Part shown: positions 342 to 62,344 of the stretch, piece by piece | Numbering within the stretch: position 1 is the stretch's first letter | Layout: the number at the start of each line of letters is the position of its first letter | IMG/VR virus record: IMGVR_UViG_3300030061_002429 | Coordinates: 1 to 64,000 of that record | Length of the DNA: 64,000 nucleotides | Reading direction: 5' to 3' (one strand) | DNA from: a virus | Made by a program: the position numbers and the translations under genes | Notes under the pieces: model-generated | Database searches by the model: none | Told to the model about the DNA's origin: nothing | The model's input: the letters and a program-made list of their open reading frames with translations, nothing else

Positions 342-620
342 ATGAGCCAGTCGTTTAACATAGCATGGTCTATGTTAAAACAAGACTTCCGTGAGGCAAT
401 GGAGTCGCAAGTAGACCCACAGGGTCAATTGGCGCAAGCATTGGCTATGGCTCGACAGCAGGGACAGGCTCCGCCTATCCAGTTTGCACCAAGACTACCG
501 CAACCTCAAACAATGCCTCAAGACCCACGTCAAACAACCCTACCGCCTGAATTTATTGGTGATGCAACTGTAGGTCGTGACTTTAGTCAAGCCTTGCAAA
601 ACATCAAGCCAAAGCGGTGA
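342..620 (+). CDS. small Q/P-rich protein with N-terminal AWxxLK tag
   Basis: ORF 318..620; ATG 342 gives MSQSFNIAWSMLK; TTTTAT about 25 nt upstream; contains DPRQTTLPPEF. Confidence 0.7.
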   Translation: MSQSFNIAWSMLKQDFREAMESQVDPQGQLAQALAMARQQGQAPPIQFAPRLPQPQTMPQDPRQTTLPPEFIGDATVGRDFSQALQNIKPKR

Positions 621-624
621 ACAA

Positions 625-1389
625 ATGAACGCCTTTGACATTGCTTGGTCTTTGCTCAAAGAAGACGACACAATGCAATACGGTGAACGAGCAGTAAATC
701 GGCAAAGAGTACTGCCAAGTGATGGCTCATCTTTCATGCCTGTGCTTGCTGATTCAGCAGAAGTCATAGACAGGGAATTTGCAGAAGGTTTAGCACGTCG
801 AATGGACACAAGCCCACCTAAAACACCAACAAAAGTTGTACGCTATCCTGAAGGTAATTGGGGCGATAAGTATGTTCTTGAAGATGATGAAAGAAATGAA
901 TATTCACAAGTTAGCGGAATGGTAAGAGATTCTTGGGATAAAGGATTCAATGAACGTCAAGGAATATCAACTGTAAATCCTACATTATCAAGCATAATGT
1001 CCGAAACAAAACATGGTGAACGACGCAAAGGACATTACGAAAGACTGTTAAATACAATACTGCAAAACAATATGAACATACATTCAACCTCAAGAAATTA
1101 TGCATCTGAACCATTTCATCAAAAATTTCAAGGTCGTTTAGCACCAAATATTGAAATGCATACACGATACAATAGTATTGGAAAACCAAAATTTCTTTAC
1201 ATGAAAAACCCAATCAAAGACTCAAAACAACAAGCGGTGCGTAATGTACAGGGTTGGGGTGACTTGCAACCTGATTACAATACGTTACCGCTTGTTAATT
1301 TTCAAGATACAATCAAGCCACAATTAGGTAATTTGTTTGAACAACATTATGGTACAAATCAAACAAGTCTTAACGACTTTGGTCAATAA
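625..1389 (+). CDS. tagged protein with GNAT-like acetyltransferase domain and C-terminal PIP-like motif
   Basis: GGTGA RBS then MNAFDIAWSLLK; ERRKGHYERLL resembles GNAT motif A and SEPFHQKF motif B; ends QTSLNDFGQ. Confidence 0.55.
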   Translation: MNAFDIAWSLLKEDDTMQYGERAVNRQRVLPSDGSSFMPVLADSAEVIDREFAEGLARRMDTSPPKTPTKVVRYPEGNWGDKYVLEDDERNEYSQVSGMVRDSWDKGFNERQGISTVNPTLSSIMSETKHGERRKGHYERLLNTILQNNMNIHSTSRNYASEPFHQKFQGRLAPNIEMHTRYNSIGKPKFLYMKNPIKDSKQQAVRNVQGWGDLQPDYNTLPLVNFQDTIKPQLGNLFEQHYGTNQTSLNDFGQ

Positions 1390-2000
1390 AACAATTGCTG
1401 TGGTTGGAACAACGGTTCTTCCATTTTCTCGTCTTCTGTTTCCGCTAAACGGCGAATAATGTCTTCTGTAAACGGTGTGGTATTGTGAACAAGGGTTTCG
1501 TCTTTACCGTTGACAATTTCGTGATTTCTATCAAGTGTTTTGATGCTGTCACGCAACTCTTCGCTTAGTGCGCTTGGTAGTTGCAGTGTGCCTTTAAGAA
1601 GTCGAAGGTCATCAAGTACACCTTGCAACTGCTTTTGCATAGTACCTGCACCAACTTTTGCTTTTTCAGCCATTTGCATAGACCGATTTTGTTGGTCTGT
1701 TTTGCGTTGTTGTTCCATTTGTTGCTCATGTTGTTTTTTCTGTTGTGCCATTTGCGTTGCAACTAAACCTGCTTGTACTTTTTTATCGCCTAATTTTTCA
1801 GTAACAGCACCTACTTTTTGCCCCACGGACGATTGCGCTACTTTTTGTCCGACTTCTTTAGCAGCACCAGCAGCACCACGAGCAAGGTTTGCAGTACCAG
1901 TAGCAAGTGCTCTTGCTCCTGTAGCAGTTGCAACTTTACCTGCTAATGCTCCTAACGCAAGTAATGGAGCCGCTTTGACTACCAATATCTTGTGGCCCAT
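1383..2000 (-). CDS. hypothetical Ala/Gln-rich helical protein
   Basis: ORF 1383..2087; likely start MGHKILVVKAAP at 2000 (or 2015), divergent from the 2052 gene; hydrophobic Ala/Gly stretch followed by a Q-rich coiled coil. Confidence 0.7.
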   Translation of the reverse strand: MGHKILVVKAAPLLALGALAGKVATATGARALATGTANLARGAAGAAKEVGQKVAQSSVGQKVGAVTEKLGDKKVQAGLVATQMAQQKKQHEQQMEQQRKTDQQNRSMQMAEKAKVGAGTMQKQLQGVLDDLRLLKGTLQLPSALSEELRDSIKTLDRNHEIVNGKDETLVHNTTPFTEDIIRRLAETEDEKMEEPLFQPQQLFY

Positions 2001-2051
2001 GACACTCGTAGACATCGGTATTTCTAAATTGTATCGTTGCCTCGCACGAGT

Positions 2052-60896: not shown

Positions 60897-61231
60897 TTGA
60901 ATACGACTTTTGCGATTGTTGTACACCAATGGAAAATGCAATAGCATTGATGAAAGCAAAGAAAAAGAGCAAGCCTTTTCACGGCTACAATCCAAATCGA
61001 CATCACAGAAAGGGTGGTTTAAACGCTAAAGGACGTGCCAAAGCAAAGCGTGAAACTGGCGCAAACCTCAAACCACCTGTGACAACAAAGCCGAGCAAAC
61101 TCAAACCCGGTAGCAAGAAAGCCAAGCGTCGTAAATCATTCTGTGCAAGAATGGGTGGTATGAAAGGACCAACATCGAAGAAAGGCAAATTGACTCCGAA
61201 GGGTGCGGCTCTCAAGCGATGGAACTGTTGA
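60893..61231 (+). CDS. small basic tagged protein (DUF6321-like pattern)
   Basis: CDCCTPMENAIALMK then GGLNAKGR...NLKPPV...RRKSFCARM...ALKRWNC. Confidence 0.7.
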   Translation: MIEYDFCDCCTPMENAIALMKAKKKSKPFHGYNPNRHHRKGGLNAKGRAKAKRETGANLKPPVTTKPSKLKPGSKKAKRRKSFCARMGGMKGPTSKKGKLTPKGAALKRWNC

Positions 61232-61243
61232 GGTGGAAAAAAA

Positions 61244-61747
61244 ATGTTTGAGAAGGCATGGCGTTTTCTCAAGGCTTCTCGTCAAATGAAGTTGTACAAT
61301 TACATTGAGGACTACCCCGGTATGAACCCTGTAAGTGGTTATAGAGGTGTACCACTAATGTCCACGGCTCCCCAAAGTCAAGAAAATTGGTCACAAAAAC
61401 CCGATTCTTTCATTGACCTAAGCGGAAAAGGTACGTGGTGGGCTGATAAAAAAACCGTTGAACCACACGCAACTGCATCGTTTTTTGCTAACGCAAATTT
61501 TCATGATGTAGAAGGAACTCCAACAGTACTTGGTCTTCGTGGACCTATGGAGAATTATGGTAGAGTACAACGTAGACGAGGTTGGAATCCAACAAATGAA
61601 CGACTTCTTTCAGAAGCACTAATTACTCATGATAAGCCTATTGATTGGGAGAACATTGTGTTTTCTCAACCATCGGAAAGTGTGACTACTGGTATGACTG
61701 AAGAAGAGGAAGAGGCATGGGCTAAACAACAATTTGGGTGGGCTTAA
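61244..61747 (+). CDS. tagged ADP-ribosyltransferase-like protein with PIP-like motif
   Basis: MFEKAWRFLK, RQMKLYNY, SGYRGV...GTWWA...VLGLR...SEALITHDKPI. Confidence 0.5.
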   Translation: MFEKAWRFLKASRQMKLYNYIEDYPGMNPVSGYRGVPLMSTAPQSQENWSQKPDSFIDLSGKGTWWADKKTVEPHATASFFANANFHDVEGTPTVLGLRGPMENYGRVQRRRGWNPTNERLLSEALITHDKPIDWENIVFSQPSESVTTGMTEEEEEAWAKQQFGWA

Positions 61748-62344
61748 ATGTTTGAGAAGGCATGGCGTTTTCTCAAGGCTACACGCCAAACCACACTTGG
61801 CGAGTTTCATCCTGATTTTCCAAGTCCTCATGGTCCTGTGACTATGCGAAGGTTTCACCCTACACAAGAATGGGGAAATAATTGGTTAAAAACAATTGAT
61901 ACAGGGTACGCTACTCATGATGATTTTAATCCTGATGAATTTCAACCGTATGAAGATTTAATTATTGAAGGTCTTAAACCGCAAGCACCGACTTTAGATA
62001 GTATATTATGGGAAAATGACCATGTAGAAGATAACATAGATGATAATGTTAAACCATTTCGTTTAGATGAAACCACATTAGGCAATTGGTTTTATCCTAC
62101 TGGAAAATTGACCGATGACCAAAAGGCTTTATCACATGAATTTATGATAGAAGATGGACAGCGAAAACAAATAGGTGTAAGAATGCCTATTGAACAATTA
62201 CAAGGCCAATTTAGAAATTTAGGGTATATGGGTGAAGCACCTGAAGCGCACGTAATAAATCATATTCCTCCGCAATACTTAGTACAACTTCCTGATAATT
62301 TTTATGGCGAAGGAGAAGCAACTTGGGGGGCGAAGGGAGAATGA
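61748..62344 (+). CDS. tagged ADP-ribosyltransferase-like protein with PIP-like motif
   Basis: MFEKAWRFLK, RQTTLGEF, VTMRR...GLKP...GNWFY...IGVR...PEAHVINHIPPQYL. Confidence 0.5.
   Translation: MFEKAWRFLKATRQTTLGEFHPDFPSPHGPVTMRRFHPTQEWGNNWLKTIDTGYATHDDFNPDEFQPYEDLIIEGLKPQAPTLDSILWENDHVEDNIDDNVKPFRLDETTLGNWFYPTGKLTDDQKALSHEFMIEDGQRKQIGVRMPIEQLQGQFRNLGYMGEAPEAHVINHIPPQYLVQLPDNFYGEGEATWGAKGE

Follow-up and report, generated by a model that had tools for sequence, protein, structure and literature searches.

Peptides at the termini of tagged proteins

The stretch of DNA analysed here (hereafter the window) corresponds to bases 1-64000 of a 101,688-bp IMG/VR virus record with an estimated completeness of 94%, and is part of the 101.7-kb genome of a group-A-like magrovirus, in which a short peptide of the form [R]-Q-T-[TS]-L-x-[DE]-[FYW]-[G/hydrophobic] recurs on several proteins. 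This peptide is a real, conserved short linear motif and occurs on both arms of the genome: on untagged microproteins of the cluster that encodes the family B DNA polymerase (PolB), a sliding clamp and an RFC-like protein, and on a subset of the structural-arm proteins that bear an AWxxLK or VLVLK tag. It resembles the PCNA-interacting (PIP) box, Qxx[LIM]xx[FY][FY], which binds the sliding clamp PCNA and is usually terminal, and a first-pass annotation of the window had accordingly read eight such peptides as addresses that direct injected enzymes to the host clamp or replisome.

All eight strings listed there were located at the positions it gave, in plus-strand open reading frames (ORFs), and their placement was also as described. 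Three of them lie one to three residues past the Lys of a tag. In ORF 2052-3722 (g2037), the canonical two-aromatic box QTRLSDFY (2088-2111) follows one residue after PVLVLK (2067-2084), a short N-terminal variant of the tag with a putative cleavage site after its Lys; in the tandem paralogues g61244 (ORF 61244-61747) and g61748 (ORF 61748-62344), QMKLYNY and QTTLGEF follow three residues after the Lys of MFEKAWRFLK, the tag MFEKAWRFLKA being separated from the peptide by SR in the former (61244-61303) and by TR in the latter (61748-61807). Two others are found at the extreme C-termini of their carriers: QTSLNDFGQ (1360-1386) closes the tagged 254-aa ORF 625-1389 (g577), with QTSLNDF ending two residues before the stop codon, and QTLGELFG (3696-3719) closes g2037, with QTLGELF ending one residue before it. 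QRLLTDY is followed directly by MKA, the MK/A site it had been said to precede, in the tagged ORF 14136-16304 (g14136; peptide at 16014-16034). The remaining two strings, each preceded by Arg, are QTTLPPEF (531-554) in the tagged 100-aa ORF 318-620 (g318), one of five RQTTL sites, and QTTLPEHF (2565-2588), which is internal to g2037 and borders its conserved core on the N-terminal side; read in the canonical register, it has His at position 7. A second N-terminal copy in g2037, QRSLGGFL (2202-2225), is replaced in close homologues by QSSLQEFM, QSNLGGFV or QTTLGEFH and is missing from distant ones.

As a single set the list holds together only in part, because three of its members are weak or of a different kind. 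QTTLPPEF is kept in both orthologues found (L003 and L004) but lacks the aromatic residue expected at position 7. QMKLYNY is not an independent instance, being a paralogous form of the RQTxLGEFHPDFP element of g61748 that has diverged. QTLGELF belongs to a separate C-terminal motif, ...L[GS]ELFG or ...GLGHLFG, which in homologues has no Gln: at this place the g2037 homologues end in LNELFG, LSELFG or LGDLFD, and the Gln is not conserved. A C-terminal motif ...L[GS][EH]LF[GAD] (3696-3719 in the window; homologues P0065, P0068 and P0072-P0080) ends both the g2037 family and the distant homologues of g577.

Conservation and frequency of the motif

At the level of sequence, conservation among homologues is the strongest evidence for the motif. 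In the g2037 family, gathered from 1.8 billion representatives, homologues at 29-43% identity begin with the pattern M-x-K-V-L-I-K-(x)-Q-x-T-L-x-[DE]-[YF]-G. In the corresponding alignment (A2), with a mean column identity of 18%, the sole invariant residue is L16, and K11, Q13, Q172, L175 and P176 are among the 12 that are nearly invariant; L16 and Q13, together with Q172, L175 and P176, are the two motif sites, and K11 is the Lys of the tag. The C-terminus QT[SR]L[NDS]DFGQ is present in 18/19 full-length g577 homologues at >=64% identity, and all homologues of g61748 carry the unit [AW..LK][AE][ST]RQ[TS][TE]LGE[FY]HPDFP, which is also found in the distant relative G154 and which occurs whole, as an internal segment of a 381-aa fusion protein, in one relative (L007). 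No homologues of g2037 or g61748 were found in cultured phage or virus records. For g14136, a probable orthologue in the distant relative G155 reads QSLLSEYYK where the window has QRLLTDYMK (the two proteins were not aligned), and the other relatives found are >=92% identical and hence uninformative on conservation.

The placement of the motif is also consistent with a linear peptide. In the AlphaFold2 (AF2) model of g2037 the predicted local distance difference test score (pLDDT) is <50 over residues 1-32 and 542-556, which are the segments that hold the N- and C-terminal motifs, and the motif lies for the most part in such low-confidence, probably disordered termini. The internal RQTTLPEH at the edge of the g2037 core is an exception. 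Of the eight strings originally listed, five fall either <=12 residues past a tag Lys or at the C-terminus, regions that make up 7% of the carrier sequence (binomial 9e-5, calculated post hoc).

The frequency of the motif depends strongly on how it is defined. In 110 ORFs (33.5 k aa) compared with within-protein shuffles, the loose pattern Qxx[LIMV]xx[FYW] has 35 sites against 25.7±5.0 (p ~0.05), which is not a clear enrichment, and the strict PIP pattern has 7 against 4.1±2.0 (p ~0.1), which is not a significant one. These figures, the approximately 26 loose matches to be expected and the fact that several of the 35 fall in large structural-arm proteins are what one would see if the peptides were nothing more than the matches that a degenerate expression usually finds in 33 kaa of protein. 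As an account of the core set, however, chance is so improbable as to be effectively refuted, because QT[TSR]L is found 7 times against 1.4 expected and RQTTL 4 times against 0.01, with a fifth copy in an ORF outside the picked gene set, and because these sites are deeply conserved, biased towards termini and commoner in tagged ORFs. Chance likely remains the explanation for most of the genome's other Qxx[LIMV]xx[FYW] matches. A repeat at the DNA level was ruled out as the source of RQTTL: synonymous codons differ at each site, so that repetition or selection has acted on the peptide and not on the DNA.

The enrichment in tagged over untagged ORFs that the first-pass annotation had put forward as a check was borne out. 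The pattern Q..[LIM].[DE][FYW] has 1.25 sites per 1000 aa in the 14 ORFs with an AWxxLK or VLVLK tag and 0.14 in the 96 without, an approximately 9-fold difference in density, and is carried by 4/14 tagged against 3/96 untagged proteins (Fisher p = 0.005, for a motif defined post hoc). Conservation across homologues, another of its checks, was also seen, the motif being kept in the g2037, g577 and g61748 families while the flanks diverge; at the level of whole genomes its enrichment is weak or absent in distant relatives. With the motif fixed beforehand, these nearly complete genomes have 6 sites against 2.3 expected in G154, a marginal excess, and 3 against 2.0 in G155, which is no enrichment, from which it follows that the motif has expanded mainly in this clade and in certain protein families. 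The consensus derived from 40 non-redundant instances is R-Q-T-[TS]-L-[DSN]-[ED]-[FY]-[G/M/F/I]. The two-aromatic form of the PIP box occurs only in QTRLSDFY, in the window, and in RQTTLDEFF, on a microprotein encoded after PolB and outside the window; the other copies have one aromatic residue followed by G, H, M or I.

Clamp, prohead protease and the proposed role of the motif

The remaining 37 kb of the genome form a minus-strand replication arm, which encodes PolB, an RFC-like ATPase, a thermosome subunit, ERCC4 and PD-(D/E)XK nucleases and an SNF2 helicase. A 253-aa ORF (L001:12035-12796:-), flanked by PolB and the gene of the RFC-like ATPase, models as a PCNA fold (pLDDT 91) and matches the PCNAs of Thermococcus, Pyrococcus and Haloferax with a Foldseek probability of 1.0 at 12-15% identity. 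The Pfam PCNA models gave no match in the genome and a phmmer search against PDB sequences returned only noise; the virus's own, very divergent clamp was recognised by its modelled fold. When 49 neighbourhoods of the clamp gene in related viruses were surveyed, the copies of the motif that are best conserved and most canonical were found on untagged microproteins of the PolB-clamp-RFC cluster. One replication-arm protein of approximately 100 aa has RQT[TS]Lx[EDQK][FYW] in 36/36 homologues. A second, encoded by an ORF of 77-82 aa that overlaps the stop codon of PolB, has a textbook PIP box, RQTTLDEFF, followed by Q[KR]RLx[DS][DY]; in this genome it is a 77-aa protein (L001:9413-9646:-, genome 73413-73646, minus strand) with a CCxCGG half zinc-knuckle and the boxes RQTTLDEFF and QKRLTDYE. 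The ORF is conserved in L090-L093, L095, L096, L116 and L138, both boxes being kept in the divergent L116, and its product may be a clamp adaptor or a sequestering factor. In a third family, g85694, the form [QY]T[TS]L[DN]D[FY] is found close to the C-terminus.

Archaeal hosts encode PCNA, and peptides of similar shape are found on cellular FEN1 proteins of the phylum sampled. Among 28 genomes from the phylum of a metagenome-assembled genome (MAG) titled "Thermoplasmata archaeon", 24/28 have C-terminal PIP boxes on FEN1, the tails including QK[NS]LFDFG (among them QKSLFDFG), QRSLDAFFG and QSSLDSFF, comparable in shape to the viral QTSLNDFGQ. That archaeal viruses do engage the host clamp is illustrated by SIRV2, whose proteins bind host PCNA (Gardner et al. 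2014, as cited in PMC5537682). Taken together, the PCNA-fold clamp, the copies on microproteins, the FEN1 tails and this precedent argue against a capsid-loading signal or a protease site and make clamp docking the most economical interpretation. We therefore estimate, from sequence and fold comparison, an even chance that the peptides are one lineage-specific motif acting as a PIP-box-type docking peptide for a PCNA clamp. With the viral PCNA and the microproteins of the replication arm in view, the proposal is better grounded than when it was first made; it is supported by a conserved, terminus-biased motif that matches the PIP consensus, by textbook copies beside PolB, by the virus's own PCNA-fold clamp and by the FEN1 tails, and the generic PIP expression is not significantly enriched.

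Several further observations weigh against clamp docking. Position 8 of the motif is most often Gly (16/40 non-redundant instances) and not a second aromatic residue. Conservation by itself is no proof of a linear-motif role, because it is also seen in some matches within the portal and other large proteins of the structural arm (QTGMQAFH, QEWLNEWR, QMNINDWK). Most carriers have no recognisable DNA-metabolism domain, and none was detectable by domain searches in g318, g577 and g14136. The motif is missing, finally, from the viral PolB, RFC-like protein and nucleases. The C-terminus of PolB (L001:9636-12038:-) is instead a conserved basic sequence whose last residue is aromatic, RR[VI]P[KR]K[YLFM]W in this virus group and RVPKRYGW here, and through it PolB may bind the divergent viral clamp in a private manner. 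A polymerase devoid of the motif and the extreme divergence of the clamp point to a possible private interface in the viral replisome, and we speculate that the polymerase-clamp pair uses such an interface while the motif of canonical appearance is directed at the clamp of the host. A complex prediction for the viral PCNA (alignment A1) with residues 1-70 of g2037 (A2) scored 0.00; it was run with no controls and with a partner of uncertain fold, and counts neither way.

The distant homologues of g577 (<=47% identity, together with two closer ones) also fall outside the PIP consensus, as they end in ...GLG[HIAD]LF[GAD] and lack the Gln. Replacement of the QT motif by an ...LF[GAD] tail in these proteins suggests that the two tails are functionally interchangeable, as if a shared receptor accepted any recognised short tail, and that receptor could be a partner other than a clamp: the capsid interior, scaffold or portal, in the manner of encapsulin cargo loading, the virus-encoded thermosome, or another viral or host hub. 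The enrichment of the motif at the termini of tagged structural-arm proteins, the presence of an HK97-fold capsid and an S78 protease, the thermosome gene and the Gly at position 8, which is atypical of PIP boxes, are all compatible with such docking. We nevertheless consider it unlikely, since the best-conserved and most canonical copies are on untagged PolB-clamp-RFC microproteins, which is hard to square with capsid loading, since only ~4-6/14 tagged ORFs bear the motif, which is thus no general packaging signal, and since the sequence closely matches cellular PIP boxes.

A different doubt concerns the copies that are associated with folded domains. The core of g2037 (residues ~193-361) is, with weak support, an ADP-ribosyltransferase-like fold: in a structural search of the full PDB with a model of mean pLDDT 53 (core ~70), members of that superfamily head the results with Z 5-7, below the caution line, and comprise Tpt1/KptA, DarT, TccC3, CARDS, Scabin and exotoxin A, of which Tpt1, DarT and Scabin modify nucleic acids. 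The name of enzymes given to the carriers by the first-pass annotation has weak backing for this one family, the others having no detectable domain. Near the end of the core, an IPP[EQ][RY]LV stretch is common to the g2037 and g61748 families, and both RQTTLPEH and RQTxLGEFHPDFP are at the start of these probably homologous cores; the two peptides may accordingly be a single inherited structural element and not independent docking peptides. QTTLPEHF, located where the confidence of the AF2 model climbs from <50 to ~70, may itself be part of the protein fold.

Extended to most instances, this argument would make RQTTLxE[FH]xP the N-terminal segment of one ADP-ribosyltransferase-like family (g2037, g61244 and g61748) and the copies after Lys the P' side of an extended protease site, with the likeness to PIP boxes a coincidence. 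It agrees with the position of the internal RQTTLPEH exactly where the conserved core and the model confidence start, with the tandem paralogy of g61244 and g61748, with the IPP[EQ][RY]LV stretch common to two of the cores and with the way in which the g61748 motif continues into a conserved HPDFP and travels with the tag as a unit even when internal. On the other hand, one domain family or one cleavage site does not explain the C-terminal copies of g577, those on unrelated replication-arm proteins or those of g318 and g14136, and the N-terminal copy of g2037 is in a segment of low model confidence that precedes the core by ~150 residues, for which reasons we find so broad a structural explanation doubtful and keep clamp docking as our preferred interpretation.

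How the N-terminal copies would become exposed is suggested by the virion genes. The plus-strand arm in the window is structural, with the large terminase (17600-19081), the portal, an S78/HK97-type prohead protease (30757-32133; Pfam PF04586, E = 2e-9) and an HK97-fold major capsid protein (32143-33252; Pfam PF17236). In the magrovirus relatives recovered, the capsid protein has a conserved ...SGSELLK|AD... site, to which the ...MSK|AD... of HVTV-1 looks similar by eye, and the N-terminus of the prohead protease itself has a conserved ...[IL][ATS][LV][LI]K|[SG]... site. What the two have in common, a hydrophobic-x-x-L-K followed by A, S or G, suggests that the protease cuts after hydrophobic-x-x-L-K, the same type of site as in the AWxxLK tags, and makes cleavage after the tag Lys plausible; the tag itself is similar to a peptide for capsid targeting or for cleavage. 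The QT motif differs from both: it is missing from the capsid protein and the protease and is also present at C-termini, unlike an S78 cleavage site, and its distribution, on a minority of tagged ORFs and at its best on untagged microproteins, is not that of a general capsid-targeting or cargo-loading peptide.

In the mechanism that we propose, the S78 prohead protease would cut after the tag Lys, so that the mature protein would begin at the motif, and from there the motif would tether the carrier to a clamp on DNA, either the PCNA of the host (Poseidoniales) or the very divergent PCNA of the virus. The complete host-addressing scenario adds more, and we regard it as improbable: cleavage would unmask N-terminal PIP boxes on packaged ADP-ribosyltransferase-fold enzymes, which after ejection would dock on host PCNA and modify DNA or the replisome at host forks, while the virus, relying on a private clamp-polymerase pair joined through the PolB tail, would escape its own effectors. 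The tandem-motif microprotein encoded after PolB would in that case act as a host-clamp sequestering factor. That injected enzymes are aimed at host PCNA, as first suggested, is a hypothesis. We know of no phage or archaeal virus with protease-unmasked clamp hooks.

Other features of the genome are in line with its assignment. Group A magroviruses have a linear genome of ~100 kb with two opposed modules (Philosof et al. 2017, PMC5434244; ICTV profile, PMC10768690), a capsid protein about one-third identical to those of haloviruses, a thermosome and SNF2, as well as their own polymerase, clamp and clamp loader (PMC5434244, PMC10768690). The traits seen here match these, hence the designation as a group-A-like magrovirus; its capsid protein shows 35-37% identity to the capsid proteins of HVTV-1, HCTV-1 and HCTV-5, which are haloarchaeal Druskaviridae. 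The host, MG-II (Poseidoniales), is inferred in the same publications (PMC5434244, PMC10768690). No close cellular relative of the viral thermosome was found in the genome collection, in which its closest match, at 51% identity, is on a contig labelled as a Parvibaculum sp. MAG. This 9.6-kb contig of a bacterial MAG (L010, NZQM01000180.1) is probably a mis-binned viral contig.

Other genes of the tagged and structural set deserve mention. Directly upstream of the g61244/g61748 paralogues, positions 60893-61231 encode a basic protein of 112 aa with an AIALMK tag and a DUF6321 match (E = 4.5e-17). The tail/baseplate region of the structural arm includes a single ORF of 5576 aa (44166-60896). The C-terminus of the protease-scaffold protein (30757-32133, ...NMSWDEVHNLA...) shares a peptide with a 115-aa ORF after the portal (24041-24388, ...NMSWEEIHEMA...), and this NMSW[DE]-type peptide may be a docking helix for the capsid interior or scaffold. 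In a language-model atlas in which all scores were <0.9, the tagged 722-aa g14136 (14136-16304) was weakly linked (0.85-0.88) to single-subunit/N4-type virion RNA polymerases, an identity for which HMMER against PDB and Pfam gave no support at E up to 10. On the minus strand at ~genome 90.5-92.7 kb (L002), 7-8 back-to-back small genes each start with MIDTDKYEGH and continue into unrelated bodies.

In the surface ocean few archaeal viruses are as abundant as the magroviruses, whose genes mostly lack annotation and whose hosts are uncultured. One conserved peptide on replication-arm microproteins and on tagged, possibly packaged, ADP-ribosyltransferase-like proteins therefore offers a concrete and cheap biochemical handle. 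If binding holds true, virion cargo would be connected with the host replisome and protease-unmasked clamp hooks would be revealed; if clamp binding fails, the motif would still mark a shared receptor.

Comparison with known systems

The arrangement of the tagged proteins recalls phage T4, which has capsid-targeting sequences and packages internal proteins trimmed by its protease, among them the ADP-ribosyltransferase Alt. Both combine a prohead protease with a short peptide at the N-terminus of unrelated proteins and with cargo, possible in the magrovirus, of ADP-ribosyltransferase fold, and it is in this setting that cleavage would expose the motif. In the magrovirus, packaging and cleavage are putative, and T4 cargo is not known for clamp-binding peptides exposed by processing. 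The encapsulins, likewise, have an HK97-fold shell and load cargo through short terminal peptides on unrelated proteins; these peptides, however, have no sequence likeness to the viral motif, which is also found on the replication arm and on a minority of tagged ORFs. The second C-terminal motif has a possible parallel in the tails with which gp43, gp33 and gp55 of T4 bind the gp45 clamp: short, hydrophobic, ...LFG-like ends on diverse proteins, comparable as a lead to the ...ELFG and ...GLGHLFG ends seen here, although with a clamp of a different family. Two other kinds of terminal signal were considered and dropped, the HbYX tail of proteasome activators, since the aromatic residue is not penultimate in ...DFGQ, and the archaeosortase signal, since there is no transmembrane segment.

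The likeness is closer to PIP-box clients such as the FEN1 tail, the RFC large subunit, PolB/PolD, p21 and DNMT1, which share with the viral motif a Q-x-x-L-x-x-aromatic core, a frequent basic residue before it, an acidic position 6 and placement at extreme termini in disordered segments. The p21 peptide QTSMTDFY and the DNMT1 peptide QTTITSHF resemble the viral QTRLSDFY and QTTLPEHF, respectively. The viral motif departs from these clients at position 8, which is usually Gly or Met, although some FEN1 tails (QKSLFDFG) also have one aromatic residue, and in its carriers, which are unannotated virion-arm proteins and microproteins and not known replication enzymes, the virus's own polymerase being without it.

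As regards small proteins of viruses and mobile elements that engage the host clamp, SIRV2 gp1 and its partners and the Thermococcales inhibitor of PCNA (PDB 5da7) are the nearest examples, and the two-box microprotein encoded after PolB would fit their kind. Those interactions are experimental and independent of a canonical PIP box repeated over many proteins, whereas the present one is predicted from sequence and belongs to a virus with a clamp of its own. Viral proteins with clamp-docking peptides are nonetheless a known class, and the motif described here would be a variant of it.

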